Shown: positions 14,126-64,000 of the stretch, one piece after another
Layout: the number at the start of each line of letters is the position of its first letter
Position numbering within the stretch: the stretch's first letter is position 1
From: an uncultured Gemmatimonadales bacterium
GTDB taxonomy: Bacteria; Gemmatimonadota; Gemmatimonadetes; Gemmatimonadales; GWC2-71-9
NCBI GenBank assembly: GCA_963828735.1
Contig: CAWHFW010000005.1
Span: 768,001 to 832,000 of the forward strand
Length of the DNA stretch: 64,000 nt
Direction of reading: 5' to 3'
Program-made: the position numbers and the translations under genes
The notes under the pieces: model-generated
What the model was told of the DNA's origin: nothing
Databases searched by the model: none
The model's input: only the letters and a program-made list of their open reading frames with translations

Positions 14126-14229
14126 GCGCACGCCGGGGGGACTCTTCGCGATCCATCATGGTGAAACCTTCTCTCCCCTGAGGCAACCCACGTCGCCTCC
14201 CGCGCCCGAATTCGCGCTATCAGCTATCG

Positions 14230-17564: not shown

Positions 17565-17593
17565 TGGACATTTCCCGACCCGTCCCGTATCGT
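17565..17593 (+). promoter_or_regulatory. Putative sigma70 promoter for the TonB receptor operon
   Basis: TGGACA-N17-TATCGT. Confidence 0.45.
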
Positions 17594-17733
17594 GGTGCCA
17601 TCACCCACAACTGATTCAGCAGCCGCTCGGCAACCGATCTGCGCCCTCTGATTGGACAGGGGGATGGCTGCCATTCCTTCGCCCGAGTCCTGGGCTCCGG
17701 CGTCCGCCCATCAGCGCGAAGTCTCGATCGCTC

Positions 17734-20980: not shown

Positions 20981-20983
20981 TGC

Positions 20984-23900
20984 GTGAGGCGGGTCGCGCT
21001 GTTGCTGGCGGTGCTGGTGATCGGCGCGCCGGTGCTCGACACGGCGGCACCGGCTGCCGCCGACCGGATCCCTCCCACCCGTCCGCCGGGTTCCGGCTCT
21101 TCGCCCGGAGCCGCGGCGCGCTCAGCGTCAACCAGGTCTACTGCGGCTTGCTGGCGAATGGCACTCATCTGCGTCGACAGCACTGGCTCCGCAGACCGTC
21201 GGTGGCGGGTTCTGGCCCAAGGGGACCGTCGACCAGTACGTCTTCGCCGTCGGGCTTCCAGGTAGCAGGCATCGTCGGCGGAATCAGATCGGAGAACCCC
21301 TGGGCCGGCGATACGACGGGAGACCTCTTCATCTCTTTGCGGGGCCGGGTAAACGGCGAACAGGTCCAGCCCATCTACAATTCGACCGACCCTGGTGACG
21401 TGGCCAACTGGCCGGCCGCCGCCTACGTGCCGGACGAGCCCAACGAGGCCGACAATCTGTTTCACCCGTCCTCCGCGGCCGGGTGGCCGCCTCGGAGGGC
21501 GACGTCTGGTGGCTCACGTGGGACGGGAACCCGTTGCTCAACAGACCAGCGACTCCATCCCCTCGGGCTGGTCCTGGAGCAGCGCGGCATGGCGTGGAAC
21601 ACGCCGAGCGGCAACCAGGACATTATCTACTTCATCTACACCCTCTACAACATCACCTCCACCCGCGTGGCAGACTACGTGGGTGTACGCCCCGCGATGC
21701 GCGAGATTCTGCTGGACAAGGCTCGGGAATTCCAGGACAGGAACAATGCGGCGTTCGGCATCACGCTGCCCGTCAGACGGGGTATCCGATCACGAGCATG
21801 CACGTGGCATTCGCCGCCGACATGGATGTCGGCACAGTTCAATGAGAACTACGCCTCGGCCAACGTCCCGTTCGCGCTGGGGTACACCTACGAACACGAC
21901 TTCGCCGCAACCCGACAACTGGACGTTCGACCCCGCACATCTTCGGCCCTCCATTCTTCCCGGCGACAGGCTTTGCGGGAGTGAAGTACCTTCGCAGCCC
22001 GCGTGACTCGCTGGACCGAGCGGTCGGACTCACCGTGTTCGGCGCCTTCGCCGGTGGCGGGGGTGCATGATCCGACCAGCTCGGTCCAGCTCTTCCGCTA
22101 TCTCACCGGTACGCCCGATCCAGCCGTCGGCGATCCCCCGTGCAACGCCGGAGACCCGAAAGCCAGCCACATCTGCTTCATCAACAAGAGCCCGCCAGGC
22201 GACATGAGGTTCTTTCAGGCGACTGGTCCCCTGACGCTTCCGCCCGGCGGGTTTCAGTCGATCGTGGTGGCCTACATCTTCGCCGCCCCCGTCGCAACCG
22301 CGGGCTGCCAGCACCTTCTGCGACGTGACGCCCGGCGACCCGACCATTCTGGGCGACGCAGGCCGCATGGCCGCCGGGGTCAACGCGATCGACTCACTGA
22401 CCGGCTACCAGGGGTTCAACGACCTCAACGGGGACGGTCGGGTGGAGCAGAGTGAATTCGAGGTCGTTCCAGGCTCGCTGCTCGGGTAAGGCGCTGGTGG
22501 CCCAGACACTGTTCGACAACGGGTTCGTGCTCGCCTCGACCGCCCCCGATGCCCCCGACTTCTTTCTGATTCCAGGACCGAACCAGGTAGCGGTGATCTG
22601 GCGACCGTCAGCGACCGAGACCACGGGCGACCCCTCCTTCGGACTCGCCAGCCAGCCGACCGGGACCGGCGGCGAGCCCAATGTGATGTACGACCCGAAC
22701 TATCGCCGGTTCGACGTGGAAGGCTACCGCATTTATCGCGGCCGGGTCGACACGCCCAGTCAGCTTCAGCTCATCGCCCAGTTCGACTATGCCAACACCG
22801 TCATGGCCGACTGGCGCGGCCAGGTGAATCCAGTCGCGGACTGCGCCCCTGAACTCGGCATCAACACAGCGACGGGGGGAGACATCGGCTTCGGCTGCCG
22901 CGTACCGTTCGACTCGGTGATCCCCGGCGTCGCTCCGTCGGTGAGCGACACGATCCCGCTCGTGGGACCGGTGGTTCAGGTCAGGCTCGCCCCCGAGGGA
23001 CGCCAGCGGCTGGCTACCGGGACCGTCCTCTTCATCCAGCTCGACACCGCGATCAACGGCACCGCTGCCGGCTGCCTCGCTGGCCGCCGGTCCCAATGGG
23101 GCGCAGTGCACGTTGCGCGATACCGAAGTGCCGTTCGCGTTCGTGGACCGTGGCGTCCGAAACGATCTGCGGTATTTCTATGCGGTGACGGCGTTCGACA
23201 TCAACTCGATTCAGTCGGGACCGTCGAGCCTCGAGTCGGCGAGACGGACAAAGTCGGTCACGCCGGCCAGCTCGGCGTCGAACCTGCAGCGTCCGGTACT
23301 GTCCAGGTCACCCTCGCCGGTCGCGGTCTCACCCTCGACACGGCAGGAGCGTTCCCGACCCTCGATCCGGAAACTGGCCGCTTCGATGGACCGTTCCCAC
23401 CTGCCAACGGCGTTTGCACTTGGCCTGGCGGATCTGGTGCAGACGCTGCTGCCCGACTCGCGTTCCGGCTCCGTGTCGCTCACGCTGGATAGTCTCCAGC
23501 TCGGCTCGGCCTACGAGCATGGCGTAGGCGAGCAGGGTCTGCCGGTCCACTTTTATCTGACGTCCGCGGGAGATGCGGCGACCGTTCGGTTGCAGGTCCC
23601 GGTGGTGCAGGACCAGAGCTCGGACCTGCAGGGTCGGCTCCAGCTACGTCGATGCAGTCCCGTTGGAGAAAGCCGTCATCGACCGGTTCGGTGGCGGAGC
23701 GGGGTTCCAGTTGCGCGGCCGCCTCGACCTCGCGCTCCCCGGCAACAATTACGCGAGCTCATGGGGGACGCGGCTGTCGCAACGCCGCCGCAGGATTCGC
23801 GGCCGACGGCACCACTGGCTGCGAGTACAATGGACCACGCTGGTTCGACGGGCCCTCGCCCCAACGAGACGAGACCCAGGTCGATCCACAGTCCTCGCAC

Positions 23901-24949
23901 CCACCCAACTCGGCCTCCCCCGGTCCGATGGCCGATCTCAACAACGCCGGCACGCTCACCGGCGTGACCACGATCCAGATGCCCCATTCCTATGAGACGG
24001 CGGAGGCCGGATTACCGCAGTCGTCGAGGGCGTGCTCGGCGCGGCGCAGCGGGCCGCGGATTTCAACCTCTGGTGGGGCGCGGACGGCGGGATCGACTCG
24101 GTCGTCGACGTCACCCATGACGTGACGGTGCCGTTCGACAGCCTCCGTCTCGCAGGCTCGTGGGGCGTGCTGAACCAGGCCGCTACAGCGGCTGCCGGAT
24201 CGTTCGACGGCAGACCCGACGTGCTGACGACCATGGACTTCGCCTGCGTCGAGCCGCTCCGCTCTCTGTCGTGGCGGTGCAGGCAAGCTATCGGTGCACG
24301 GCGGCTCCGTTCGTCCTGAGCCGCACCGTCACGCCGGGGCCGATCGCGATTTGGGACCAGACAACCGCCACGGCTCAGGACGGCGGCGGTTCGGCCGGGC
24401 GCCGGCTTCGCGCTCTACCTGGCCGGCAACATCACGATCTTCGAGCTGGCTGCCGGTCTGCCGCCGGCGGGCACCGTCTGGAGCCTGCGAACCTACGTCG
24501 GCGCCATCAGCGGGGGCCGAGGCGCAGCCGGTGACCGGGGACCCTACACTTTCACTGCGCAACCCCGGCCACTCACGGCGACCGGGGTTCAGCTCCACCT
24601 GGAGTACGAGGTAGTCAACCGCATCGTCCCGGCGACCGGTAACGACCTCAGCCGCGTGCACACGGTGCCGGACCCGTACTACGTGACCAGTAAGTTCGAG
24701 CGCACCACCGACGTCAAGGTCATCGAGTTCGTCAACCTGCCGGCCGACTGCATCATTCGGATCTATTCTACCAGCGGGATCCTGGTCTCGCTGCTCGAGC
24801 ACCATTCGAGCACCTATGGCGGCTCCGAGCGATGGAACGTGCTCAATCGCAACAACCAGGTGGTGGCGAGCGGAGTCTACTTCTATCACCTCGAGGCGGG
24901 CGACGCCCGGCGGGTGGGCCGCTTCGTGGTCGTCAACTACGCCCAGTAG
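20984..24949 (+). CDS. Large secreted protein with T9SS-CTD/FlgD-Ig-like C-terminal domain (many frameshifts)
   Basis: Signal peptide; DVEGYRIYRG, YFYAVTAFD; C-terminus HTVPDPYYV..FVNLP..IRIYSTSG..WNVLNRNNQVVASGVYFYHL. Confidence 0.75.
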
Positions 24950-38779: not shown

Positions 38780-39483
38780 CGCACCGCATTCTCGTGGTCG
38801 ACGACGAGCCGGACATCACCGCGCTCGTGGCCTACCATCTCGCGAAGGCCGGCTTCCGGGTCTCGACGGCGAATACCGGTCCCGATGCGCTCAAGGCCGC
38901 GCGGGAGGAGCGCCCGGACATCGTGATCCTGGACCTCATGCTGCCCGGGGTCTCGGGCTACGACGTCCTCGCGGAGCTCCGCAAGCGCGACGAGACCCGC
39001 GATGTCGGCGTCATCCTGCTCACCGCCCGGCGGGAGGAAACCGACCGGATCCGCGGCCTTTCCCTCGGCGCCGACGACTACCTGACCAAGCCGTTCTCCC
39101 CGCAGGAGCTGTCACTCCGCGTGCGGGGGTTGCTCCGCCGCCTGGCCTCCCCGCCGGTCACGGCAGGGAGCACCCTGGCCGCCGGCCCGATCAGCATCGA
39201 CCGCTCCGCGCACCGGGCGAGCGTCGGCGGACAGGAGCTCAACCTCACGGCCACCGAATACAAGCTGCTGCTCACGCTGGTCGAGCGTCGCGGCCGGGTG
39301 CAGACCCGTCCGCAGCTGCTCGAGACGGTGTGGGAGGCGCAGCCCGACATCCAGACCCGCACGGTGGACATGCACGTCCAGCGCCTCCGCACGAAGCTCG
39401 GCGAGGCCGGGAAACTGATCGAGACGGTGCGCGGATTCGGCTACCGGTTCCGCGGCACCGAGCGGGGGGCGCGCGCCAGGTGA
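38776..39483 (+). CDS. phoB: PhoB-like OmpR-family response regulator
   Basis: ILVVDDE, LDLMLP, GADDYLTKPFS, RTVDMHV, ETVRGFGY; adjacent to pst genes. Confidence 0.88.
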   Translation: MTHRILVVDDEPDITALVAYHLAKAGFRVSTANTGPDALKAAREERPDIVILDLMLPGVSGYDVLAELRKRDETRDVGVILLTARREETDRIRGLSLGADDYLTKPFSPQELSLRVRGLLRRLASPPVTAGSTLAAGPISIDRSAHRASVGGQELNLTATEYKLLLTLVERRGRVQTRPQLLETVWEAQPDIQTRTVDMHVQRLRTKLGEAGKLIETVRGFGYRFRGTERGARAR

Positions 39484-41192
39484 GCTTTGCGCAGCGACTC
39501 GTGCTCGGCACCGTCGCCATCCTGGTCCTCGTCGTGCTGGTGCTGGTCTGGGGCGCGGAGCGCTCGCTCCGGCGCGATCTCGAGGGAGACATCGGCAGCG
39601 GGCTGGAGAACGAGGCCCGGCTGATTCGTGAGGCGCTGCCGGCCGATTCGGCCGCGTGGGACCAGGCCGTGCACCGGCTGGCCGCGCAGAACGGCCACCG
39701 GATCACGATCGTGGACCGGACCGGCCGCGTTCGCGCGGACAGCGATTTCCCGCCGGGCCCGCTGCCGCCGATCGAGAACCACGCCGGACGTCCCGAGGTG
39801 CACGCCGCGCTCGAGGGCCAGCCGGGAGCGGCCACCCGGCGAAGCGAGACGGTGGGGCGTCTGCTCATGTACGTCGCGGTGCCGGGCGGACCGGGCGCGG
39901 TGCGGGTCGCGGCGGACCTGACGCAGGTGGATCAGATCATCCGCCGGGCCCAGGGCGCGGTGGCCGGCGCGGCGCTGCTGGCCCTGTTCCTCGGGACGGT
40001 GCTCGCGCTGATCGCCGGGCGCTCGGTCGCGCGGCCGCTCACGAGCATCGCGGGGGCCGCGCGGGCGATTGCCGCCGGCGCCCCGCCCCGCTTTCCTCGC
40101 TCGGGGATTCCGGACGTGGACGCGCTGGTGCAGTCGCTGCGGCAGATGCACCGGCAGCTCGGCGACCGCTTCGACGAGCTTCGCCGCGAGCAGGCCGAGT
40201 CGGCCGCGCTGGTCGAATCCATGATCGAGGGAGTCGTGGCCGCCGACGGCCGCGGCCGCATCGTGACCGCGAACCCCGCCGCGCGCCGGCTCCTGGGCTA
40301 CGGCGCCACGGAGGCCCTGCCCGACCTGCCCGAGCTGTTCCGGGTGAAGGCCGCGCGCGAGGTCGTGGATGCGGTGCTCAGGGGCGAGCCGGTGGAGGAC
40401 CGCCAGCTCGAGATGGACGACCGGGTCTTCCTGGTGAACGCGCGTCCCCTGCCCACCGGCGGCGCCGTGCTGGTCCTGCACGACCTCACCGAGGTTCGCC
40501 GGCTCGAGGCGGTGCGGCGGGACTTCGTCGCGAACGTCTCGCACGAGCTCAAGACCCCGCTCACCTCGATCTCGGGCTACGCGGAAACGCTCCTGGGTGA
40601 CGCCGCCGACACCGAGACGACCGAGCGCTTCCTCCGCACCATCCTCAGCAACGCGCGTCGCATGCAGCGGCTGGTGGACGACCTGCTCGACCTCTCGCGG
40701 ATCGAGGCCGGCCGCTGGCACCCCACGCTGAGCGAGGTGGACGTCGCGGCCGTGGCGCGGGAAAGCTGGACCGCCCTGGCCGGCCGGGCGGACAGCCACC
40801 GCATCGAGCTGGCGCTCGACGTGTCCTCCGACGCCGTGACCGTCGACGCCGACCTCGACGCCCTGCGGCAGGTCCTGACCAACCTGATGGACAACTCGCT
40901 CCGGCACACGCCCGAAGGCGGCCGCATCACCTGCGTCACCCGCCGGATGGACGGCGGCGTCGCCGTGAGCATCCGCGACAACGGGTCCGGCATCATGCGG
41001 GAGCACCTGCCCCGGATCTTCGAGCGGTTCTACCGCGCGGATCAGTCCCGCTCCCGCGAGGAAGGCGGCACCGGCCTAGGACTCGCCATCGTGAAGCACC
41101 TCGTCGAGGCGCACGGCGGCCGGGTGACCGCCGAGAGCGAGCGGGGCAGCGGCACGACGGTCACCTGCCTCTTTCCCGACCCCCCCGCCTGA
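39480..41192 (+). CDS. phoR: PhoR-like sensor histidine kinase (TM, HAMP, PAS, HisKA, HATPase)
   Basis: RRDFVANVSHELKTPLT, RIFERFYR, GGTGLGLAIVKH. Confidence 0.9.
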   Translation: MSFAQRLVLGTVAILVLVVLVLVWGAERSLRRDLEGDIGSGLENEARLIREALPADSAAWDQAVHRLAAQNGHRITIVDRTGRVRADSDFPPGPLPPIENHAGRPEVHAALEGQPGAATRRSETVGRLLMYVAVPGGPGAVRVAADLTQVDQIIRRAQGAVAGAALLALFLGTVLALIAGRSVARPLTSIAGAARAIAAGAPPRFPRSGIPDVDALVQSLRQMHRQLGDRFDELRREQAESAALVESMIEGVVAADGRGRIVTANPAARRLLGYGATEALPDLPELFRVKAAREVVDAVLRGEPVEDRQLEMDDRVFLVNARPLPTGGAVLVLHDLTEVRRLEAVRRDFVANVSHELKTPLTSISGYAETLLGDAADTETTERFLRTILSNARRMQRLVDDLLDLSRIEAGRWHPTLSEVDVAAVARESWTALAGRADSHRIELALDVSSDAVTVDADLDALRQVLTNLMDNSLRHTPEGGRITCVTRRMDGGVAVSIRDNGSGIMREHLPRIFERFYRADQSRSREEGGTGLGLAIVKHLVEAHGGRVTAESERGSGTTVTCLFPDPPA

Positions 41193-50753: not shown

Positions 50754-50828
50754 AGGGGTAACCTGCCCGTCCGATCGGGGTTAGTATAACCGGAACGCGT
50801 CGAGCGTCCGACGCCCCCGGAGGCGAGC

Positions 50829-51861
50829 ATGACCTCCCGTCACGGCGATACCCTTCCCGTCGCCGACATTTCAATCCTCTGGATCACGGCCGGTCTGGGC
50901 TGCGACGGCGACACCATCGCCATGACCGCGGCCACGCAGCCGAGCATCGAGGACCTCGTCTCCGGCGCCCTTCCCTGGACCCCGAACGTCAAGCTGCTAC
51001 AATCCGTTCCTGTCTCCCGAAAACGGCGACGAGTTCGTCCGCTTCTTCCATCGGGGCGCCGCGGGCGAGCTCGATCCCTTCATCCTGGTGGTCGAGGGCT
51101 CCATTCCCGACGAGACCAACAAGGCCGAAGGCTACTGGGCATCGTTCGGCACCGATCCCGCGACCGGCCAGCCGATCACCACCTGCGAATGGATCGATCG
51201 GCTGGCGCCCAAGGCGTGGGCCGTGATCGCGGCCGGGACCTGCGCCACCTACGGCGGCATCCATGCCATGGAGGGCAATCCCACCGGCTGCATGGGCCTG
51301 CCCGATTACCTCGGCTGGGAGTGGCGATCGGCGAGCGGACATCCCGCATCGTCTGCGTGCCGGGCTGTCCGGTGCAGCCGGACAACATGACCGAGACGCT
51401 GCTCTACCTGCTCCACATGGCCGCCGGGCGCGCGCCGATGATTCCGCTCGACGACGCGCTGCGTCCGACGCTGGCTGTTCGAGCAGACGGTGCACGAAGG
51501 ATGCGATCGCGGCGGCTACTACGAGCAGGCGCCAGTTCGCCGAGGAATACGGATCGCCGCTCGTGCATCGTGAAGCTGGGCTGCTGGGGACCGGTGGTGC
51601 AGTGCAACGTCGGCAAGCGCGGCTGGATGGGCGGCATCGGCGGCTGCCCGAACGTCGGCGGCATCTGCATCGGCTGCACCATGCCCGGCTTTCCCGACAA
51701 GTTCATGCCGTTCATGGATCAGCCGCCGGGCTCGCTGCTCTCGTCCGCCGCGGTCATGACCTACGGACGGGCGATTCACGCCCTGCGCCGGTTCACGCAG
51801 GCGTCGCTCAACAAGGAGCCCGGCTCGCGGCGCGGCCGCGAGGCCGGCGGCACGCGAGTAA
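50829..51861 (+). CDS. Extra group 1h-type [NiFe]-hydrogenase small-subunit paralog (frameshifted; 3' end uncertain)
   Basis: WITAGLGCDGD, VEGSIP, GTCATYGGI, PGCP, VHEGCDR, CIVKLGCWGP, CPNVGGICIGCTMPGFPD across frames; GAGG RBS. Confidence 0.85.
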
Positions 51862-51909
51862 TAGCCGGCGGCTCGCGAGACCGGAGCCCGCCGGAAGCGT
51901 GCAGACACG

Positions 51910-53387
51910 GTGCTCCTCGACCTGGCCGCCGTGTTCGTGCGAAGCGCCGCGTCGAGCCGGCGACCGCCCGACCGACCAACCGCCTGACGCCCAGCCTCGA
52001 GGCGAGGTACCGCACCCTGGTCGAGCAGATTGCCGGCCGTCGTCTTCATGGCCTATCTCGACCGCGGCATCGGCGAGGCCTACGTGAGCCCGCAGATCGA
52101 GGCGGCGCTGGGCTTCTCGCAGGCAGGAATGGCTCGAGGATCCGGTGCGCTGGTATCACCAGATCCATCCGGACGACAAGCGAGCGCTGGAGCATCGAGG
52201 CCGCGCGAGATGTTTCTGACCGGCAAGCCGCTGCGCTCCGCCTATCGCGTGCTGCCCGCGACGGCCGCATCGTCTGGTTCCACTGCGAGGCCAAGATGGT
52301 GCGGCGGCGACGACGGCGGCCCTGGTTCATCCATGGCGTCGGGTTCGACATCACCGACCTGAAGCGGCGGAAGCGGCGCTGCAGGAGGAGCGCAACGTGC
52401 TCACCGCGATTCTCGACACCGTCGGCGCGCTGGTCGTGGTGCTCGATCCGGACGGCCGCATCGTCCGGTTCAACCGCGCGTGCGAAGCTGACGAGCGGCT
52501 ACTCGTTCGGCGAAGTCCGCGGCCGCAACATCTGGGACCTGTTCCTCACGCCGGAGGAGAGCGAGCGGTTCCAGCGCGTTGCTGGCCGAGCTCCGACCGG
52601 CCAGGAGCCCAGCGACTACGAGGCCGACTGGCTGACGCGCGACGGGTCCCGCCGCCGGATCGCCTGGTCGAGCACGGTGCTGCCGGGCTCGACGCGCGAC
52701 GCCGAGCCACATCATCACGACCGGCATCGACATCACCGAGCGGAAGCGGCTGGAGAAGACGATGCTCGAGATCAGCGCGCGGGAGCAGCGCCGGATCGGC
52801 CAGGACCTGCACGACGGCCTCGGCCAGCATCTGACCGGCATCGCGTTCATGAGCAAGGTGCTGGCGCAGAAGCTGGCCGAGGAGCGCGCGCCGGAAGGCC
52901 GGCGCATGCCGCCAAGATCGTCCAGCTGGTGAACGAGGCGATCGACAAGACGCGCGAGCTGGCGCGCGGACTGCTGCCGGTGGTCTCCGACGCGGAAGGG
53001 CTGATGTCGGCGCTCCGGCAGTGGGCCGGCGAGGTGGAGGATCTGTTCAGCGTCTCCTGCCGGTTCGATTGCGCGGAGCCGGTGCTCGTGCCGGACGTGG
53101 GCATGGCGACGCACCTGTACCACATCGCGCACGAAGCCGTGAACAACGCGATCAAGCACGGCGACGCCACGCCGGATACGGCTCACGCTGGGCCGGGAGA
53201 ACGGCACCGGGACGCTCACCGTCGAGGACGACGGCATCGGCATCTCCGACGGTGCCCACGGGTCACCCCGGACATGGGGCTCCACATCATGAGCTACCGC
53301 GCCAACATGATCGGCGGCTCCCTGGAAGTTCGCGCCGGCCAGCAGGGCGGCACGCAGGTCTGCTGCCGTTTCCCGCTCCAGCGCTGA
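51910..53387 (+). CDS. Soluble double-PAS histidine kinase, HisKA_3 (NarX-like) class (frameshifted; start uncertain)
   Basis: YRTLVEQI, IHPDD, DITD, second PAS ILDTVGALVVVLD..DITERK, EQRRIGQDLHDGLGQHL, EAVNNAIKHG, MGL; no TM segment seen. Confidence 0.82.
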
Positions 53388-53399
53388 GTCGAGGAGATC

Positions 53400-54093
53400 A
53401 TGCATGCCGCAGAGTACCGTCGGTGTCCGCGGCGCCGAGGAAGCATCGCGTGTTCGTGGTCGACGATCATCCCATCGTGCGCCAGGGACTCGCGCTGCTG
53501 ATCAACCAGGAGCCCGATCTGGTGGTCTGCGGCGAGGCCGAGGAAGCGCACTCGGCGCTGCAGGCGATCGCGTCGCTCCGGCCCGATATCCTCATCCTGG
53601 ACATCTCGCTGCCGCGGTCCGGACGGGCTCGATCTGCTCAAGACCATCCGCGCCACCGACCCGGACACTCCCGGTCCTGGTGCTCTCCATGCACGACGAG
53701 TCGATCTACGCGGAGCGGGCGCTTCGCGCGGGCGCGAACGGCTACATCATGAAGCAGGAGGCCACGGAGAACGTGCTCGTGGCGCTGCGCCGCATCCTCG
53801 GCGGCGAGGTCTACGTGAGCGACGGATCGCCAACACGATGCTCCGCCAGCTGGTGTCGGGCTCGCGGAAATCGGACGGTCCACCGGAGGCGCGTCTGAGC
53901 GATCGGGAGCTCGAGGTGTTCCGGATGATCGGTGACGGGCATGGGAACGCGGCAGATCGCCGAGGACCTGCACCTGAGCGTGAAGACGGTCGAGACCTAT
54001 CAGGCGCACATCAAGGAGAAGCTGTCCCTGCGGACCGCGCGCGATCTGGTGCAGCACGCCATCCAGTGGAGGCTGAGCGAGGAGATTGGGTAG
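53400..54093 (+). CDS. NarL/FixJ-family response regulator (frameshifted)
   Basis: [62 protein letters not shown]. Confidence 0.88.
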
Positions 54094-54109
54094 ATCGCTG
54101 CCGCAGCAC

Positions 54110-54147
54110 CGGGGTTTCCCCGATGAAGGGATGGGGAAGTCCCCGAT
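54110..54147. promoter_or_regulatory. Two GGGG-N3/4-CCCCGAT palindromes upstream of hhyS, candidate regulator binding sites
   Basis: CGGGGTTTCCCCGAT (54110) and ATGGGGAAGTCCCCGAT (54131). Confidence 0.5.
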
Positions 54148-54341
54148 AATCCGCGTCGGGACCCGCCTGCTTGCGGGCTCTTTCGGCAAATCCTAACTCA
54201 TACTGTGCGTCAGGTTCGACGCGGCGCCCGCGAGTGCCGGTGCCGCGTTGGCGTAGACCCTGCCTCGAGCGTCGGCGCATCGCTGGTCCGACGCACCGAT
54301 CCGGGACTCTCTCCGGATCCCTGTGCCTGGAAGGAGCGGCC

Positions 54342-55409
<1,068 letters not shown>

Positions 55410-55428
55410 CGGCAAAGGAGCGAGCGCG

Positions 55429-57228
55429 ATGACCACCGCCACGGTCCCCAAGACCGAGAGCCGGGAGAAACAGCGCAAGCTGGTGGAGATGAACTGGGAT
55501 CCCGATCACCCGGATCGTGGGCAGCCTGGGAATCTTCACCAAGATCGACTTCGACAACCGCGAGGTGGCCGAGTGCCACAGCACCTCGTCGATCTTCCGC
55601 GGCTACAGCATCTTCATGAAGGGCAAGGATCCGCGCGACGCCCACTTCATCACCAGCCGCATCTGCGGCATCTGCGGCGACAACCACGCCACCTGCGCCA
55701 CCTACGCCCAGAACATGGCGTTCGGCGTGCGCCCGCCTGCGCTCGGCGAGTGGATCGTCAACCTCGGCGAGGCCGCCGAGTACATGTTCGACCACAACAT
55801 CTTCCAGGACAACCTGGTCGGCGTGGATTTCTGCGAGCAGATGGTTCGAGGAGACCAATCCCGGCGTCTGGGAGAAGGCCAAGAAGACCGAGGCGCCCCA
55901 CGCGGCCGACCACGGGTACCGCACGATCGCCGACATCATGACGGCGCTCAATCCGTTCACCGGCGAGTTCTACCGCGAGACCCTGCACATGAGCCGCTAT
56001 GACGCGCGAGATGTTCTGCCTGATGGAAGGCCGGCACGTCCATCCCTCGACGCTCTATCCGGGCGGCGTCGGCACGGTGCCGACGGTGCAGCTGTTCACC
56101 GACTACCTCGTCCGCCTGATGAAGTACGTGGAGTTCATGAAGAAGTGCGTGCCGCTGCACGACGATCTCTTCGACTTCTTCTACGAGGCGCTGCCGGGCT
56201 ACGAGAAGGTCGGCTATCGCCGGACGCTGCTGGGCTGCTGGGGCTCGTTCAACAATCCGGACGTCTGCGACTACACCTACAAGAACATGACCAACTGGGG
56301 CGACGCGATGTTCGTCACCCCCGGCGTCGTGGTGGACGGCAAGCTGGTGACCCACGACCTGATCAAGATCAACCTGAACATCCGCATCCTGCTGGGGCAC
56401 TCCTTCTACGACGACTGGGCCAACGCGCGAGACGTTCGTCAAGACCGACCCGCTCGGGAACCCGGTCGATCAGCGGCATCCCTGGAACCAGACCACGATT
56501 CCGCGGCCGCAGAAGCGCGACTTCGACGGCAAGTACACCTGGGTGATGTCGCCGCGCTGGTTCGACAGCGGACAAGGACCATCTGGCGCTCGATACCGGC
56601 GGCGGCCCGATCGCCCGGTTCTGGGCGACGGCGCTCGCGGGCATCGTGGACATCGGCTACGTCAAGGCGACGGGCACGAGCGTCAAGATGTACCTGCCCA
56701 AGACCGCGACGAAGCCCGAGGCCGAGTTCGAGTGGAAGATTCCGAAGTGGAGCAACGCGATCGAGCGGGACCGCGCCCGGACCTACTTCCAGGTATACGC
56801 CGCCGCTTGCGCCTACCACTTCGTCGAGAAGGCGCTGGCCGAGTTGCATGCCGGACGCACCAAGACCTGGAACGAGTTCACGGTGCCCGACGAGGCGATC
56901 GGCTGCGGCTTCCACGAGGCGGTGCGCGGCGTGCTGTCGCATCACGTCGTGATCCGGAAGGGCAAGATCGCGAACTACCATCCGTATCCGCCGACGCCGT
57001 GGAACGGCAAGCGTGCGGGACATCTACGGCACGCCGGGTCCCTACGAGGACGCGGTGCAGAACACGCCGATCTTCGAGGAGAACGGTCCCGACAAATTCA
57101 AGGGGATCGACATCATGCGCGCGGTACGGAGCTTCGATCCGTGCCTGCCATGCGGCGTGCACATGTATCTGGGCAACGGCAAGGTGCTGGAGCAGCATCA
57201 TTCGCCGCTCTTCGGCAATCACGGCTGA
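55429..57228 (+). CDS. hhyL: Group 1h [NiFe]-hydrogenase large subunit (frameshifted)
   Basis: L1 [12 protein letters not shown] and L2 [11 protein letters not shown] with C-terminal tail; [20 protein letters not shown]. Confidence 0.92.
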
Positions 57229-57232
57229 CGCG

Positions 57233-58137
57233 ATGCCCAGACAAACCGAGCTCGAGCGACGGATCGCGGCGATAGACCAGCTGGTCCGGTCGCTCGAGAA
57301 CGCGTCCGATCCCGCCACCCGCGCCGCGGCGCAGGAGCTCGCCGGCACGCTCATGGAGCTCCACGCCGCGGCGCTCGAGCGCGTGCTCGCGATCATCGGC
57401 CGGCAAGGGCCGGCCGCGAGCGCTATCGTCGAACAGCTGGCCGGCGACGAGGTGGTCTCGGGCGTGCTGCTCCTGCACGACCTCCACCCGGTGGACCTGC
57501 CGACCCGCGTCCGCGGCGCCCTCGAGAAGACGCGGCCCTACCTGCAGTCCCACGGCGGCAACGTCGAGCTCGTGGGCATCGACGAGGCCGGCGTGGTGCG
57601 GCTCAGGATGGTGGGAAGCTGCCACGGCTGCCCGTCGTCCGCGATGACGCTCAAGCTGGCCATCGAGCAGGCGATTCAGGAAGCGGCGCCGGATGTGACC
57701 GCCATCGTGGTGGACGGCGAGCCGAACGGGGGCCCCGGGACGCCTGCCCCCGCGAGCTCGTGGCGCTCGAGCCGATGCATCACGCGCCTGCCGAGACGAG
57801 CGGCGACGTGTGGCACGACGTCCCGCTGCTCGACGACCTCCGTCCCGGCGAGGCCCGCGCGCTGGCAATCGCCGGCCGGGAGGTCCTGTTCCTCGCGCTG
57901 GAGGGGCGGCACTACGCGTACGGCGCTCGCTGCCCGGCCTGCAACGCCGAGCTGGCCGGCGCCGAGCTTGCGGGCCACACGCTGGCCTGTCCGGCCTGTG
58001 GGCGGGGCTACGACGTGATCCAGGCGGGCCGCGCGATCGATCGCGGTGATCTCCATCTCGACCCGTTCCCCATCCTCACCCGGCACGGACGCGTGCAGAT
58101 GGCCGTGCCGCCGCCGATGGTGACGGCCTCGCCGTAG
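57233..58137 (+). CDS. NifU-like + Rieske-like Fe-S protein (HhyE-like; one frameshift near 57760)
   Basis: [30 protein letters not shown]-terminal RCPAC...ACPAC. Confidence 0.8.
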
Positions 58138-58140
58138 TCC

Positions 58141-58779
58141 ATGCCGACGGCCGACCATTCCGACGGCGCCTTCTCGGCGCTCCGGCGCTTTGCCCGGCCT
58201 CGCGCGCCGGTCGAGCGCTGCGATCTGTGTGGGCTCGAGCTCCCGGCCGGCCACGATCACCTGATCGAGCCGGGCCGTCGCGAGATGGCCTGCGCCTGCC
58301 CCGCCTGTGCCCTGCTCTTCACCGGACGGGCCGGGGCCCGATACAAGCGGATTCCACGTGATGTCGCCCTGCTGGAGGGCTTCTCGCTCACCGACGCCCA
58401 GTGGGAGAGTCTCCGCCTGCCGATCAGCCTCGCCTTCTTCTACGAAAGCACGCCGCAGTCGCGCGTGGTCGCGTGCTACCCCAGTCCCGCGGGCGCCACC
58501 GAGTCGCTGCTCGAGCTCGAGACCTGGTCGGAGCTTCGAGCCCGGAATCCAGTGCTCGCCCGTCTCGAGCCCGATGTCGAGGCGCTGCTGGTAAATCGCA
58601 CCAGCGCCCCGGGCGACCATCTGATCGTCCCGATCGACGAGTGCTTCAAACTGGTCGGCCTCATCCGCATGCACTGGAAGGGGCTCTCCGGGGGAACGCA
58701 GGTATGGAAGGAGATCTCGGCGTTCTTCGCCGCGCTCCACGAGCGGGCCCGTCCGATCCCCGAGGCGATGCGTGCCTGA
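58141..58779 (+). CDS. Hydrogenase-cluster conserved protein (DUF5947-like)
   Basis: ERCDLC, CACPACALLF, YPSPAGATES, PIDECFKLVG. Confidence 0.8.
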   Translation: MPTADHSDGAFSALRRFARPRAPVERCDLCGLELPAGHDHLIEPGRREMACACPACALLFTGRAGARYKRIPRDVALLEGFSLTDAQWESLRLPISLAFFYESTPQSRVVACYPSPAGATESLLELETWSELRARNPVLARLEPDVEALLVNRTSAPGDHLIVPIDECFKLVGLIRMHWKGLSGGTQVWKEISAFFAALHERARPIPEAMRA

Positions 58780-59422
58780 CCTGGATTTCCGCATCGAGGG
58801 CGCCGAGGTGGTGCCGTACGCGACGGCGCCGCTGCTGGCCTTCCGCCTCGCCGTCCGAAACGCGCAGCCCGACGAGAGCGTCCACACCGTCGTGCTGCGC
58901 TGCCAGATCCAGATCGAGGTGACCCGCCGACACTACGATCGGGGGGAGGAGGTGCGGCTGCGCGATCTCTTCGGCGAGCCGGAGCGGTGGGGCCAGACCC
59001 TTCGCACGATGCTATGGACCCACACCACGGCGGTGGTGCCGGCCTTCGAGGGCGAGACGGTCACCGAGCTGCACGTCCCGTGCAGCTACGATTTCAATCT
59101 GGCGGCGACCAAGTTCTTCTATGGACTGGCCGGCGGCGAGGTGCCGCTCGCGTTCCTCTTCAGCGGGAGCGTGTTCTACCAGAGCGCGTCCGGCGCGCTT
59201 CAGGTCAGCCCCATCTCGTGGACCAAGGAGGCGCAGTTCCGGCTTCCCGTCGCCACCTGGCAGCGGCTGATGGATGCGTACTATCCGAACCTGGCATTCC
59301 TGCAGCTGCGCCGCGACGTCTACGATCGGCTGTACCAGTACAAGGTGCGACACGGCATCACCGGCTGGGAGCAGGCGGTGGAAGGGATGCTGCGCGTGGT
59401 GGAGGAAGGAGCGCCGGTGTGA
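58772..59422 (+). CDS. Hydrogenase-cluster conserved protein (DUF6084-like)
   Basis: LRCQIQIE, LFGEPERWG, VPCSYDF, FLFSGSVFY. Confidence 0.8.
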   Translation: MPDLDFRIEGAEVVPYATAPLLAFRLAVRNAQPDESVHTVVLRCQIQIEVTRRHYDRGEEVRLRDLFGEPERWGQTLRTMLWTHTTAVVPAFEGETVTELHVPCSYDFNLAATKFFYGLAGGEVPLAFLFSGSVFYQSASGALQVSPISWTKEAQFRLPVATWQRLMDAYYPNLAFLQLRRDVYDRLYQYKVRHGITGWEQAVEGMLRVVEEGAPV

Positions 59423-60447
59423 GCCGGGGGGACGTGGGGGCGCTCGCGCGAACGCTGCTCTATGAAGGGTACCTGTTGTACCCGTACCGCCCGTCGGCGG
59501 TGAAGAACCGGCAGCGCTTCAATTTCGGCGTGATCTACCCGGACGCGCACAGCCGCGCCCAGGATGGCGTCGAGCCGAGCCTCATGCGGACCGAATGCCT
59601 GGTCGTGGGTCCGACGCCGACGGTCGACATCGAGGTACGATTCCTCCACTTGGTCACCCGGACCGTCGAGCAGCCGACGGAGGGAGGCGCCGGCGCCCGC
59701 GAGGTCGCGCGCCTCGAGGCCGGCGGCCGGGTCTACCAGCCATGGCAGGAGGCGGTGGAGCGGGAGGTCACGCTGTCCCGCCTCGCGCTGTCGGATCTCC
59801 TGGGAAGCATCCACCGTCGGCGTGTCGCGTTCCCAGACACGGACCAGCGCGAGCCCATCTCCGGATCGAGCGGGGACCCGGTGGGCGTCGTTCGCCGCCG
59901 GCAGGCGGGGATCGAACTCGAGATCGAGGTAGCCGTCCGGCCGGCCGGCGATGACGCGTACGTGATCGGCGTTGAAATCGACAACCGGACCGAGCGGGTG
60001 CCGAGCCCGGCGCTCCGCGACGAGCTTCTCTCGGTGTGCCTCGTGGCCGTCCACACGATCCTGACCGTCGAGAGCGGCGAGTTCACCTCCCTGATCGATC
60101 CGCCCGCCGCCCTGCGCGAGGCGACGGCCCAGTGCCGGAACGTCGGGACCTGGCCCGTGCTCGCCGGTCCGCCCGGCACGCGGGACACCATGCTGTCGTC
60201 TCCCATCATCCTCTACGACTACCCCGAGATCGCGCCCGAGAGCCGTGGTGACCTGTTCGACGGTACCGAGATCGACGAGATCCTGTCGCTCCGGATCATG
60301 ACCTTGAGCGACGACGAGAAGCGGGAGATCGCCGAGTCGGACGAGCACGCGCGGCTGCTGCTCGAGCGCACCGAGTCGCTGGCGGCGGAAGAACTGATGG
60401 GCCTGCATGGGACCATGCGACCCGTGCGCGCGAGGGATGGCGCGTGA
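59419..60447 (+). CDS. Hydrogenase-cluster conserved hypothetical protein
   Basis: LLYEGYLLYPYRPSAVKN, SSPIILYDYPEIAPES.GDLFDGTEIDEIL. Confidence 0.8.
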   Translation: MSRGDVGALARTLLYEGYLLYPYRPSAVKNRQRFNFGVIYPDAHSRAQDGVEPSLMRTECLVVGPTPTVDIEVRFLHLVTRTVEQPTEGGAGAREVARLEAGGRVYQPWQEAVEREVTLSRLALSDLLGSIHRRRVAFPDTDQREPISGSSGDPVGVVRRRQAGIELEIEVAVRPAGDDAYVIGVEIDNRTERVPSPALRDELLSVCLVAVHTILTVESGEFTSLIDPPAALREATAQCRNVGTWPVLAGPPGTRDTMLSSPIILYDYPEIAPESRGDLFDGTEIDEILSLRIMTLSDDEKREIAESDEHARLLLERTESLAAEELMGLHGTMRPVRARDGA

Positions 60448-61211
60448 GTGCCGCCGGCCCGCTCCCGGCCAAGGGCGCGCGCGTCCGGCTCCGGCCGCGG
60501 GCCGGCGGGGACGTGCTCGATCTGATCCTCATCGACAAGGCTGCGACCGTCGAGTCCGTCGAGGAAGACCTCGAGGGGAAGGTCCTCGTCTCGGTGGTGC
60601 TCGACGATGACCCCGGCGCCCACCTCGGCATGATGCGCCAGCCCGGGCACCGCTTCTTCTTCGCGCCTGAGGACCTCGAGATTCTGCCGGACGATGGCAC
60701 CGTGCGACCCGCGGCGACCCGGTCCATCCTGGTCGCCGGCATCGGCAACATCTTTCTGGGCGATGACGGCTTCGGCGTCGAAGTGGCCCAGCGGATGGCG
60801 GCGCGGCCGCTTCCCGCCGGGGTATCCGTCGGCGACTACGGGATCCGCGGCTACGACTTGGCCTACGCCCTCATGGCCGGTCCCGATCACGCGATTCTGG
60901 TGGATGCATGCCCCCGCGGCGAGGCTCCGGGAACGTTGTACGTGATGGAGCCCGAACCGGACGAGCTCGAGGCCGCCACCGGCGATCCCGGCTTCCTGGA
61001 TGGCCACGCGATGAATCCGGTGAGCGTGCTCCGCCTCGCGCGCTCGCTCGGGGGAGCGCCCGCGCCCGTGGTAGTGGTGGGGTGCGAGCCGGGGACACTG
61101 GGCCCCGAGGAAGGGCACATCGGCCTCAGCCCACCGGTGCAGGCGGCGGTTGCCGAAGCAGTCACGCTGGTCGAGTCGTTGATCGCGCGGTTCCTCGCGT
61201 CGGAACCCTGA
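60444..61211 (+). CDS. Hydrogenase maturation protease with extra N-terminal domain
   Basis: ILVAGIGNIFLGDDGFGVEV, DYGIRG, VDA, DGHAMNP, VVGCEP from about residue 90. Confidence 0.88.
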   Translation: MSAAGPLPAKGARVRLRPRAGGDVLDLILIDKAATVESVEEDLEGKVLVSVVLDDDPGAHLGMMRQPGHRFFFAPEDLEILPDDGTVRPAATRSILVAGIGNIFLGDDGFGVEVAQRMAARPLPAGVSVGDYGIRGYDLAYALMAGPDHAILVDACPRGEAPGTLYVMEPEPDELEAATGDPGFLDGHAMNPVSVLRLARSLGGAPAPVVVVGCEPGTLGPEEGHIGLSPPVQAAVAEAVTLVESLIARFLASEP

Positions 61212-61249
61212 TCGGCGTCCATCGCCACCCAGAGAGAGGAGTGTGCTGC

Positions 61250-61459
61250 ATGACCACGATCGCATCGGTGCGGGACGGTGAGGCAAGCGACCGGGAGACG
61301 CTGATGCTCTTTGGAGGTCTCGCCTGCATGGTCTTCGGCGCCGGCCTCGTGCTGTCCAATCGCTCCATCCGGCGGTATCTGGGCGAGGTGAGTCCGGGTC
61401 TCCTCCTGGAAACCGCCATGCCCGACGTGCAGCGCTACTTGAAGCTGCGGGCGATGTAG
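61250..61459 (+). CDS. Small single-TM protein ending PDVQRYLKLRAM
   Basis: AGGAG RBS; hydrophobic LMLFGGLACMVFGAGLVL. Confidence 0.7.
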   Translation: MTTIASVRDGEASDRETLMLFGGLACMVFGAGLVLSNRSIRRYLGEVSPGLLLETAMPDVQRYLKLRAM

Positions 61460-61469
61460 GCCCGAACCC

Positions 61470-62090
61470 GTGCGCTACCGGATCGACGCGAGCGCCAGTC
61501 GCTTCACGGTCCGCGCCTTCGCCGGGGGCGTGCTGGGTGGCATGGGGCACGATCCGACCTTCCTCGCGCGGGACCTCGCCGGGGAGGTCGAGTTCGATCC
61601 CGGGCCGCCGAGTGCGAGCTCGGTCCGGCTGGCGGTGAAGTCGTCCTCGCTCGGCCTCCTCGACTCCATAAGCGACAAGGATCGGCGCGAGATCGAGCGG
61701 GTGACGAACCAGGAGGTGCTCGAGAGCGAGGCCTACCCGGAGATCCTGTTCGTCGCCGAGCGGGTCGCGCTCACGGGGAGTCCGGGGGGACCGTTCCAGG
61801 CCGCGCTCGACGGCGAGCTCACGCTCCACGGCGTGAGCCGGCCATGCCAGGTGCCGCTCCGCATCTACCCGTCGGGCGACATGGTGCGCGCCCAGGGCGA
61901 GACGACGCTCCGCCAGAGCGACTACCACATCGACCAGGTTGCGGTGGCGGGTGGCATGCTCAAGGTTAAGGACGAGGTGAAGTTGGCGTTCGACATCGTC
62001 GCCCGACCGGTAGCGGAACGGCAGCCGGCGGCGGGCCCGACAGCCGATCGGCGGGAGGGCGCCGGCGGCGTCGAAGCGTCGACCGCGTGA
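61470..62090 (+). CDS. YceI-like polyisoprenoid-binding protein, no signal peptide
   Basis: YRIDASASRF, LESEAYPEILF, GELTLHGVSR, QSDYHI, VKDEVKLAFDIVA. Confidence 0.8.
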   Translation: MRYRIDASASRFTVRAFAGGVLGGMGHDPTFLARDLAGEVEFDPGPPSASSVRLAVKSSSLGLLDSISDKDRREIERVTNQEVLESEAYPEILFVAERVALTGSPGGPFQAALDGELTLHGVSRPCQVPLRIYPSGDMVRAQGETTLRQSDYHIDQVAVAGGMLKVKDEVKLAFDIVARPVAERQPAAGPTADRREGAGGVEASTA

Positions 62091-62175
62091 CCTGGGATCG
62101 AGGCGGCGAGTTGACGACTCGGCTCCCCGCGCGCAAATAGGACGTAAGGAAATAGCGAGTAAGGGGAGCGTCGCC

Positions 62176-62461
62176 ATGTGTCTTGCCATCCCGGGGAAGA
62201 TCGTCGAGCTGGTCGCGGACTGGCCCACGATCGGCGTGGTCGAGGTGACGGGGGTCCGCCGTCGCGTGGACCTGGGCCTCCTGCAGGACGAGCGGCCGCA
62301 GGTGGGTGACTGGGTGCTCATCCATGTCGGGTTCGCCATGAGCAAGATCAGCGAGCACGAGGCCGCCGATCAGATGCGCACGCTCAGCGATCCTCGGCGA
62401 GGACCAGGCGGCCATGGATGAGGTCCGCGGCTACGGGCTGGAAGGGAAGGATGAGCCGTGA
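62176..62461 (+). CDS. hypC: Hydrogenase chaperone HypC (one frameshift near 62386)
   Basis: MCLAIPGKIVE, VGDWVLIHVGFAM. Confidence 0.92.
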
Positions 62462-63593
62462 AATTCGTGGATGAGTTCCGCGACCCCGAGGTGATCGGCC
62501 GGACGGCCGACGAGATTCGGCGCCTCGCCGATCCCGGTCGCCACTACCGTCTGATGGAGGTCTGCGGCGGCCACACGCACGCGATCTATCGCTTCGGCCT
62601 CAAGGACGTACTGCCGCCGAACATCGAGCTGATCCATGGGCCGGGCTGCCCCGTCTGCGTGCTGCCGATGGGCCGGATCGACGACGGGCTGCTGCTGGCC
62701 CAGCGCCCCGACGTCATCTTCAGCGCGTTCGGCGACATGATGCGCGTGCCCGGCGCGCACGGCAGCCCTCTCGAGCACAAGGCGAAAGGGCTGGACGTCC
62801 GCATCGTCTATTCCCCGTCGGATGCGCTCAAGCTCGCGCGGACCAATCCGGACAAGCACGTCGTGTTCTTCGCGATCGGCTTCGAGACGACCGCGCCCTC
62901 GACCGCGCTGACGCTGCTCCGCGCGCGCGAGGAGGGGCTCCGGAACTTCTCGGTCTTCTGCAACCACGTCACCATCATCCCGGCCATCCGGGCCATCCTC
63001 GACTCGCCCGACATGCGCCTCGACGGCTTCATCGGCCCGGGGCACGTCTCGACGGTGATTGGCTGTCGCCCCTATGAGTGGATCGCCCGGGACGAGGCGA
63101 AGCCCATCGTGGTCTCCGGCTTCGAGCCGCTCGATCTGCTGCAGTCGATCGTGATGCTCCTGCGCCAGCTCGGGGAAGGCCGGGCCGAGGTCGAGAACCA
63201 GTACACCCGGGTGGTCCCGTGGGAGGGAAACCGCGCCGCGCTTCGGGCCATGGCGCGAGGTGTTCGAGCTCCGGCCGTACTTCGAATGGCGCGGGCTCGG
63301 ATTCATCTCGCAGTCGGCGCTTCGGATCCGCGACGAGTTCGCCGCGTGGGACGCCGAGCGCCTCTTCGATGTGGCCGGGCGTTCGCGTTACCGACCCCAA
63401 GGCCGCCCAGTGCGGAGAGGTGCTCAAGGGCGTCCTCAAGCCGGTCCAGTGCAAGCTGTTCGGGCGCGAATGCACGCCCGAGCACCCCGTTGGCGCCCTG
63501 ATGGTTTCTTCGGAAGGATCATGCGCCGCGTACTACAACTACGAACACCGCAAGGCCAGCGCCTCGACGCAGAGTCTCGTGGCACCGGTCTGA
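62458..63593 (+). CDS. hypD: Hydrogenase maturation protein HypD (frameshifted near the 3' end)
   Basis: MEVCGGHTH, GPGCPVC, GFETTAP, PGHVS, GALMVSSEGSCAA. Confidence 0.95.
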
Positions 63594-63607
63594 CGGGCGA
63601 GGCCTCC

Positions 63608-64000
63608 GTGGACGGCCCCTCGCCCCAGGTCCGTTTCCGCGACCCGCAGATCGAGATGGCGCATGGCGCCGGGGGCAAGGCGAGCCGCCGGCTCGTGGAC
63701 GGCCTGTTCGTTCCCCTGCTCTACGACCTCTCGACACCTGCCGCCGATCGGCTCGGCGACGCGGCGCGGCTCGCCGTGGACGGGGCCGAGCTCGCGATCA
63801 CCACCGACAGCTTCGTGGTCACTCCGCTCCGCTTCCCCGGCGGCTCGATCGGCGAATTGGCCGTGAACGGGACCGTGAACGACCTGGCCGTGTCGGGCGC
63901 CACGCCGGTGGCCATCGTGACGACGTTCCTGCTCGAGGCCGGGCTCCCGACGTCCGAGCTCGAGGCCGAGGTGCGCGCGATGGCCGATGCCGCGCGCCGG
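63608..64000 (+). CDS. hypE: Hydrogenase maturation protein HypE (partial, runs off the window)
   Basis: MAHGAGGK, GDAA, TTDSFVV.PL.FPGGSIGELAVNGTVNDLA. Confidence 0.92.
   Translation, partial: MDGPSPQVRFRDPQIEMAHGAGGKASRRLVDGLFVPLLYDLSTPAADRLGDAARLAVDGAELAITTDSFVVTPLRFPGGSIGELAVNGTVNDLAVSGATPVAIVTTFLLEAGLPTSELEAEVRAMADAARR

Follow-up and report, generated by a model that had tools for sequence, protein, structure and literature searches.

A conserved group 1h hydrogenase small-subunit paralog linked to a PAS histidine kinase: a candidate sensory cassette upstream of hhySL

Atmospheric H2 is removed biologically mainly by the group 1h [NiFe]-hydrogenases of soil bacteria, and we know of no dedicated regulator of these enzymes that has been characterised. 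Established H2-sensing pathways employ group 2b enzymes, namely HoxBC-HoxJ-HoxA in Cupriavidus necator and HupUV-HupT-HupR in Rhodobacter capsulatus, with an NtrC-type response regulator, and the combination of HisKA_3 kinases with NarL-type regulators serves the Fe-S or heme sensors of NreB-NreC and DevS/DosT-DosR. Here we analyzed a stretch of 64,000 nucleotides from an uncultured Gemmatimonadales bacterium (contig CAWHFW010000005.1, positions 768,001 to 832,000), termed the window, in which an orphan group-1h-type small-subunit paralog (termed para), a soluble PAS histidine kinase and a NarL/LuxR-type response regulator are encoded upstream of hhyS and hhyL, the genes of the group 1h small and large subunit (Table 1). 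Judged by sequence comparison, this cassette appears to be a real, conserved sensory unit representing a variant of hydrogenase-linked two-component sensing, and it offers a concrete candidate circuit in which an Fe-S protein would provide the input of a PAS kinase and a NarL-type regulator would act at a defined predicted operator. If confirmed, the cassette would contain a hydrogenase-derived sensor without a catalytic subunit of its own.

Like the group 2b systems, the cassette couples a hydrogenase-derived Fe-S subunit to a soluble PAS histidine kinase and a regulator in the vicinity of uptake-hydrogenase genes and, by inference, would report H2 to transcription. Unlike them, it contains no dedicated sensor large subunit, its small subunit is of the group 1h type and closest to HofK in the structure 5AA5, its kinase is of the HisKA_3 and its regulator of the NarL/GerE rather than the NtrC type, its target is a high-affinity, atmospheric-H2 enzyme, and its sensor pair is transferable among different types of transmitter. 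With NreB-NreC and DevS/DosT-DosR it shares the HisKA_3 kinase, the NarL-type regulator and a redox-active cofactor as presumed input, whereas this cofactor would sit on a separate hydrogenase-derived protein and not in a PAS or GAF domain of the kinase. The sections of PMC13098282 used here describe the C. necator sensory hydrogenase with its two-component pathway, place Hhy of Mycobacterium smegmatis under the control of DosST/DosR and list the huc regulators as unresolved.

An extra hhyS copy in Acidobacteria, including cultured strains, is already in print. For both Acidobacteriaceae bacterium KBS 83 (KBS 83) and Edaphobacter aggregans, the main text of Giguere et al. 2020 notes an 'additional copy of hhyS' ca. 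3,600 bp upstream of hhySL, as in Pyrinomonas methylaliphatogenes (PMC8027828). This main text, in which Greening et al. 2015 (PNAS) is cited, reports the hhyS homolog by presence and reverse-transcription quantitative PCR only, and uses 'kinase', 'sensor' and 'regulat' 0 times. The window has a similar layout, with 3,513 nt from the para start to the hhyS start vs ~3,600 bp, and para most likely belongs to the same gene family, the likeness being one of layout. Likewise, the consulted part of Eichorst et al. 2018 describes acidobacterial 1h clusters without the word 'kinase' (PMC5900883). Our search of the literature on group 1h enzymes with kinases or regulators yielded no description of the module, with Greening et al. 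2015 or SI-2 of PMC8027828 as places that may voice a sensory role, and among the full-text papers searched 'hhyS homolog' was not found beyond PMC8027828. Added here are the para clade, its linkage to the first PAS domain of the kinase (PAS1), a natural fusion, a palindrome upstream of hhyS and the occurrence in a probable Gemmatimonadota genus.

Conservation of para with the kinase helix and PAS1

Para is conserved as a unit together with the N-terminal helix and PAS1 of the kinase. The initial annotation had placed a second complete small subunit directly before a two-PAS HisKA_3 kinase and a NarL-type regulator, all upstream of hhySL, and both the coordinates and the Pfam domains confirmed this arrangement. 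A DNA search of 40 relatives revealed a 3.3-kb stretch, complete at 78% identity in two same-genus genomes (G018 and G019) and followed by the second small-subunit gene. In these genomes the genes are intact, encoding a para of 345, a kinase of 503–508, a regulator of 228 and an HhyS of 353 amino acids (aa), and in G019 the kinase gene overlaps the para stop by 14 nt. Frameshift-aware alignment of the intact G019 proteins to the window DNA corrected the indels (33 breaks) and yielded the window coordinates, with 277/344 (para), 350/504 (kinase), 172/226 (regulator) and 316/352 (HhyS) aligned residues being identical. For the G019 proteins, Pfam assigned PF01058 (Oxidored_q6) and PF14720 (NiFe_hyd_SSU_C) to both small subunits (E-values for para 8.6e-20 and 2e-22), PAS_3, PAS_4/PAS_9, HisKA_3 and HATPase_c to the kinase, and Response_reg and GerE to the regulator. 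NCBIfam gave no equivalog above cut-off for the cassette proteins, with MctR, UvrY and NarL, the best models for the regulator, all below cut-off.

The window copy of para keeps all ligand motifs (CDGD, GTC, PGCP, HEGC, CIVKLGC and CPNVGGICIGC), as had been noticed at the outset. Among solved structures, para is most similar to chain A (HofK) of the actinobacterial-type (group 1h) enzyme from Ralstonia, 5AA5, with an E-value of 3.1e-154 and no gap in residues 18–339, and HhyL of G019 matches chain C (HofG) at 1142 bits. Residues C32, C145, C186, H228, C231, C251, C257, C264, C278, C285 and C288 are invariant in 35 para, and we presume their assignment as ligands to individual clusters. Position 35 always carries a carboxylate, which is D or, in four variant para, E; accordingly, CDGE replaces the proximal-cluster motif CDGD in the para of loci L105, L108, L109 and L110, all of them accompanied by divergent HisKA_3 kinases. 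Like HhyS and HofK, para belongs to the same fold family, has no Tat signal and contains the CDGD motif and the other ligands; unlike them, it forms a separate clade with its own diagnostic residues, mostly lacks the HhyS tail and has no adjacent large subunit. The clade-diagnostic residues relative to HhyS (n=11) are I37, W57, I92, N104, W137, C182, G234, Q263, G267, Q303 and S331. I92, W137, Q263, G267 and Q303 are constant in all para, distant variants included, and most para also have W57, N104, C126 and C182. C126 is nearly invariant in para, most of which lack the C-terminal tail LTTGYhPRsY conserved in HhyS.

In a tree of 142 small subunits, one branch separated 72 para from 69 HhyS with an SH-aLRT support of 98. 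A second tree, to which 16 representatives from a 50%-identity library were added and in which the small subunit of another hydrogenase of the same genome (contig C2) served as the outgroup, again recovered para as one clade outside that of HhyS (support 98), with a stem of 0.39 vs 0.11 for HhyS. In both clades the Gemmatimonadota sequences are nested among acidobacterial ones and the sub-groupings match, consistent with joint movement of the cassette genes. Nei–Gojobori dN/dS ratios were calculated from 150 random pairs of 53 loci; the median over unsaturated pairs was 0.070 in para (72 pairs) and 0.049 in HhyS, compared to 0.147 in the kinase and 0.125 in the regulator, and for the close pair G018–G019 the values were 0.11 (para) and 0.047 (HhyS). 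Para is thus an old, constrained paralog under purifying selection, with 204/339 columns conserved to at least 95%, close to the level of HhyS over the whole length.

Also as initially proposed, para has no large subunit of its own, neither in its own genome nor in the loci examined. The own genome contains three small-subunit matches vs only two large-subunit loci. Of these two, the locus on contig C2 also encodes a Tat-signal small subunit and the locus in the window encodes HhyS, so each large subunit lies beside a small subunit other than para. The only 1h large subunit follows HhyS, and the gene downstream of para is the kinase.

The AF2 model of the G019 kinase (mean pLDDT 79.9) contains no membrane helix. 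In 35 kinases the phospho-acceptor H319 (within DLHDGLGQ), N430, G459, G471 and G473 are invariant, and invariant columns amount to 51% in PAS1, 49% in the phospho-acceptor helix and 9% in the second PAS domain (PAS2). We identified no cofactor signature in PAS1, and a Foldseek search of the model against the PDB gave only generic PAS-PAS-kinase, NifL, FixL and LOV matches without a cofactor clue.

To follow the linkage, genome contigs (one genome per species) were scanned with a kinase alignment, yielding 560 kinase relatives, and the best 80 loci, mostly from Terriglobia (Acidobacteriota) with few from Gemmatimonadota, were used for synteny. By tblastn, nearly all of these 80 show the order para-kinase-regulator-HhyS-HhyL; all five genes reached at least 85% coverage in 47, the others being cut by contig ends or frameshifts. 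The kinase retains its N-terminal part in 75 of the 80 loci, and of the 74 with covered upstream DNA, 72 have a hydrogenase small subunit (SSU) gene immediately before the kinase, 71 of them detected by script and one, a degraded copy, in L080. The short kinases of L090 and L095 (365–367 aa) start just before PAS2, and their genomes contain no para anywhere, only small subunits beside a large subunit. In L096 (Verrucomicrobia), a receiver domain stands in place of PAS1 and there is no hydrogenase small subunit. An even draw of 301 Acidobacteriota genomes, with 1h-type small subunits counted at 500 bits or more, gave 14 genomes with such a subunit, eight of which carry para, i.e. about half of the sampled 1h-bearing Acidobacteriota; the overall tally of 22 includes G354, which is left out of later counts. 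All eight para lie directly upstream of a gene with the helix and PAS1 at 52–63% identity. These data show the pattern that the initial annotation had suggested looking for, a distinct paralog clade that co-occurs with the kinase across genomes.

The pair of para and PAS1 is combined with four types of transmitter, in one case as a natural fusion. In G488, para accompanies an orthologous HisKA_3 kinase, whereas the HisKA_3 kinases and regulators next to para in L105, L108, L109 and L110 are only 27–37% and 31–37% identical, respectively. Para is found with PAS_3-HisKA-HATPase-REC hybrid kinases in L107 and L113, and in the latter (G609:C1:2035000-2047000, locus 5097-10386) the PAS_3-HisKA-HATPase-REC-REC kinase and para are located ~600 kb from hhySL. 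The next gene after this pair encodes the CstA carbon-starvation transporter (cstA). Two database proteins with 90% identity, P0395 (ENA, 761 aa) and P0443 (JGI, 763 aa), have the build SSU-linker-helix-PAS_3-HisKA_2/HWE, and we take them as a true fusion on the grounds that the frame is kept through a diverged linker. P0408, a partial protein from a Thermoleophilaceae metagenome-assembled genome, combines an SSU 55% identical to para with a hydrophobic segment followed by PAS-PAS-HisKA, possibly representing a fusion of another architecture from Actinobacteria. Other candidates were rejected: P0425 and P0430 are frameshift artefacts, most of the 48 longer-protein matches are merges of SSU with the large subunit or HypE, and chimeric open reading frames (ORFs) of SSU with the large subunit, HypF or GGDEF/EAL (e.g. 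P0186) were taken as gene-call merges. Merges of SSU with the large subunit, HypE, HypF or GGDEF/EAL come mostly from ENA assemblies and probably reflect lost stops or frameshifts. The long representatives in the 50% library contained no PAS fusions.

The kinase family is large: of 8000 candidates scored, 5725 reached E≤1e-20. Identity is 60% or higher throughout the best 120, where the few names given are Gemmatimonadales or Acidiferrales; the nearest named relatives also suggest that the window's organism belongs to Gemmatimonadota. Among 300 other Gemmatimonadota, an orthologous kinase (67–71% identity) was detected only in two genomes of the window's genus, besides G018 and G019. This rarity, together with the nesting in the trees, suggests that the cassette may have been transferred from Acidobacteriota. 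In soil metagenomes the cassette is highly abundant: the best 120 clusters of para-type metagenomic proteins share 80% identity or more with an acidobacterial para, several with more than 1000 members, and their public names read 'hydrogenase small subunit', 'hypothetical protein' or even 'HypE'.

A palindrome between the regulator gene and hhyS

The spacer between the regulator gene and hhyS has a median length of 337 nt. An exact 9-mer palindrome core is present in 38/66 spacers (shuffled maximum 5), and a matrix built from these cores located a site in 61/66 regulator-hhyS spacers (23/28 when the non-seed spacers are counted alone). The resulting 17-bp palindrome is the predicted operator of the regulator, and the window contains one strong and one weaker copy (Table 1), the only two sites in its 64 kb at a threshold of 12. 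Elsewhere in ~1.1 Mb of locus DNA we found 12 matches, seven of them just upstream of hhyS in loci outside the 66-spacer set and the remaining five weak (14.0–17.0 bits). In L060, L071 and L092 the palindrome stays with hhyS even though hhyS is 3–5 kb away from the regulator. In further loci, the hhyS upstream region carries the palindrome in 3/3 cases with an orthologous regulator in the genome (L112, L098 and L099) and, within reach of the locus DNA, in 0/6 with a divergent regulator and 0/10 without an adjacent two-component system. The palindrome upstream of hhyS hence co-varies with the orthologous regulator. As the short-kinase loci also retain the palindrome, the PAS2-containing kinase, the regulator and the operator would form the core circuit, to which para and PAS1 would be an added input.

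Autoregulation through a palindrome upstream of para was considered and rejected, the 10 apparent matches being hhyS sites wrongly assigned in loci whose para is broken or absent, or belonging to the divergent region shared in L072. Downstream of the palindrome, a second conserved element resembling CCGCCTGCTTGCGG forms a short hairpin in the regulator-hhyS spacers of L018-L097 (window ~54160-54185), and its 8-mer CAAGCGGG is present in 30/66 spacers. We discarded CCGCCTGCTTGCGG as a sigma-54 promoter, its GG-to-GC spacing being 12 rather than 10. In L117 (G371) and L118 (G387), hhySL is preceded by a HisKA_3-type kinase (27–31% identity) and a LuxR-type regulator (37%), with neither para nor palindrome; two-component control of 1h genes thus seems, on this gene content, to be common in Acidobacteriota even without para.

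Proposed mechanism and competing explanations

We propose that para is a kinase input reporting electrons from H2 oxidation, and that the regulator controls hhySL via the palindrome, a reading to which we give an even chance. Its parts differ in strength: para is very probably an input of the kinase, the regulator probably acts on hhyS through the palindrome, and for an H2-derived rather than a general redox signal the chance falls a little short of even. According to this proposal, para would bind the helix/PAS1 region of the kinase, and its three clusters would be reduced upon H2 oxidation, most likely via pairing of para with HhyL, the only 1h large subunit, or by electrons from the Hhy enzyme. 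The redox state of para would then alter kinase activity and regulator phosphorylation, and the NarL-type regulator would control hhySL at the 17-bp palindrome. The near-HhyS conservation of para over its whole length suggests that it is still able to pair with HhyL, which in turn favours an H2-derived signal. Docking of para on the kinase, pairing with HhyL, H2 as the signal and an independently evolved H2 sensor had all been put forward as possibilities in the initial annotation, and we likewise treat them as candidates. Overall, that interpretation is partly supported: the three findings it had itself named as speaking against it, namely a decaying paralog, a cognate large subunit elsewhere and a kinase linkage not conserved across genomes, all came out in favour of the idea.

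More speculatively, para and helix/PAS1 could constitute a portable two-protein H2 sensor whose catalytic subunit is taken over from the functioning hydrogenase. In competition with HhyS, para would recruit HhyL into a signalling hydrogenase that reports the turnover of atmospheric H2, and the pair, plugged into at least four transmitter types, would be the regulator so far lacking for the uptake of atmospheric H2 in the dominant phyla of soil. We regard this extended version as doubtful.

Several observations weigh against the proposed H2-reporting role. Para cannot split H2 alone because it has no large subunit of its own. The linkage has exceptions, as L035 and L091 encode a PAS1-bearing kinase without upstream para and L106 a PAS1 kinase without adjoining para, the same genome having para elsewhere (L107). 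The hydrogenase does not need para, because six of the 14 1h-bearing Acidobacteriota are devoid of it. Pairwise-distance partial correlations over 47 loci, an uninformative test, gave no specific signal (r of 0.08 for para-PAS1 and 0.10 for para-HhyL). The window copy is frameshifted, so that function in this organism depends on reading the breaks as artefacts. In cultured Acidobacteria, the main text of PMC8027828 reports that hhyL and hhyS rise on carbon limitation, and that the hhyS-homolog transcript was detected in KBS 83 and not in E. aggregans. An energy or redox signal would fit this carbon-limitation induction and strain-dependent transcript at least as well as H2. A complex prediction of para with three 4Fe-4S clusters and kinase residues 1–305 scored 0.00 in two runs and weighs neither way.

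The serious rival is therefore a general redox or energy signal, which we consider unlikely on balance: para would still be the kinase input but for general redox, O2 or Fe-S status, with its clusters poised by a cytoplasmic pool and HhyL uninvolved. The missing large subunit, the induction of acidobacterial hhyLS by carbon limitation, the para-kinase pair of G609 located far from hhySL and followed by the CstA gene, and the control of M. smegmatis Hhy by the redox/O2-sensing DosST/DosR (in the part of PMC13098282 used) all point in this direction. However, the extent of conservation in para, with only 11 diagnostic switches, is hard to explain with an unused large-subunit interface, and the module lies directly before hhySL in most loci.

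A purely structural role, in which para would replace HhyS as the small subunit of HhyL or assist in its assembly, is far less plausible; the isoenzyme would have another electron outlet, para would take no part in signalling, and adjacency to the kinase would reflect co-regulation only. Para is indeed HofK-like over its full length with all ligands kept, and Q263 and G267, which flank the ligand Cys264, as well as the absent HhyS tail could alter the choice of partner. Yet where the genes are separated, as in G609, para follows PAS1 and not hhySL, it is combined with four transmitter types and also fused to a kinase, and kinases without PAS1 lack para.

True pseudogenisation of the cassette including hhySL in this genome, with the family functional elsewhere, is also very improbable, and the frameshifts look like local assembly errors. 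Due to the frameshifts, table-11 ORF calling merges para and the kinase into one false 852-aa ORF (50829..53387), and because of the G+C content of 65–72% long false ORFs are found in every frame of the region, while in three-frame translation the recognisable protein switches frame every 60–150 nt. Among the 33 breaks in para, kinase, regulator and HhyS, 26 are one extra base and seven are two extra or one missing base; none lies in a homopolymer and no in-frame stop occurs between breaks. All four genes are affected about equally, the structural hhyS and hhyL included. A phase-switch proxy based on GC3 (third-position G+C) showed a median of ~1.25 switches/kb on all seven contigs, compared to 5.25/kb at window 52-56 kb and 2.5–3.75/kb at window 8-24 kb, indicating local and not genome-wide damage. 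This elevated rate, and the intact second hydrogenase on C2, which makes the errors local, would be compatible with genuine decay of the cassette. The terminal branch of the window HhyS measures only 0.008–0.013 substitutions per site, far too few for eight indels, so neutral decay with almost no private substitutions is unlikely, and the near-identical database ORF P0430 of a close relative from another assembly has its para frame broken at a different place. The single extra bases, the missing in-frame stops, the equal damage to all genes and the short HhyS branch thus argue for assembly errors. Bursts of frame breaks, mostly single inserted bases, are located at window 50800-57200, 8000-24000 and 62000-64000, and the rest of the seven-contig assembly is clean.

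A recent, decaying duplicate of hhyS, as the 79% DNA identity of para and hhyS in the own genome could suggest and which the initial annotation had named as a finding that would speak against it, is practically ruled out by the separate para clade across two phyla, its dN/dS of 0.07–0.11 and the at least 120 database clusters close to an acidobacterial para.

Locus layout and neighbouring features

The features of the window are compiled in Table 1, where the Hhy accessory and maturation genes rest on tblastn with G019 proteins and Pfam on these proteins.

Table 1 Coordinates of the cassette and adjacent features in the window.
Feature	Position	Strand	Frameshifts	Remarks
para, orphan group-1h-type [NiFe]-hydrogenase small-subunit paralog	50829..51861	+	5	No Tat signal; Fe-S ligand positions all kept; 3' end approximate (TAA at 51859-51861 in shifted frame)
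Soluble sensor histidine kinase	~51850..53387	+	15	N-terminal helix, PAS1 (PAS_3), PAS2, HisKA_3, HATPase_c; stop 53385-53387; start codon not identifiable in window DNA
NarL/LuxR-type response regulator	53404..54093	+	5	Response_reg and GerE
17-bp palindrome, predicted regulator operator	54108..54124			Family consensus ATCGGGGAATCCCCGAT; score 20.1; ~234 nt upstream of hhyS start
Second, weaker palindrome copy	54131..54147			Score 14.0; 23 nt downstream of the first
HhyS, canonical group 1h small subunit	54342..55409	+	8	
HhyL, group 1h large subunit	55432..57216	+		At least 7 frame pieces
Hhy accessory/maturation genes	57864..64000	+		DUF5947, DUF6084, HycI-like protease, YceI, HypC, HypD, HypE; HypE extends past the window edge

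Two further observations concern genes outside the cassette. The second, intact [NiFe]-hydrogenase of this genome (C2:657640-660700) has a large subunit of ~600 aa and a small subunit that carries a Tat signal (SRREFLEF) and, at its C-terminus, a hydrophobic tail; it resembles membrane-bound group 1 enzymes and seems to have no relation to the 1h cassette. In the window, weak matches to the regulator (32% identity, 38782-39138) and the kinase (21%, 40161-41177) are located ~10 kb upstream of the cassette, pointing to another, unrelated two-component pair.

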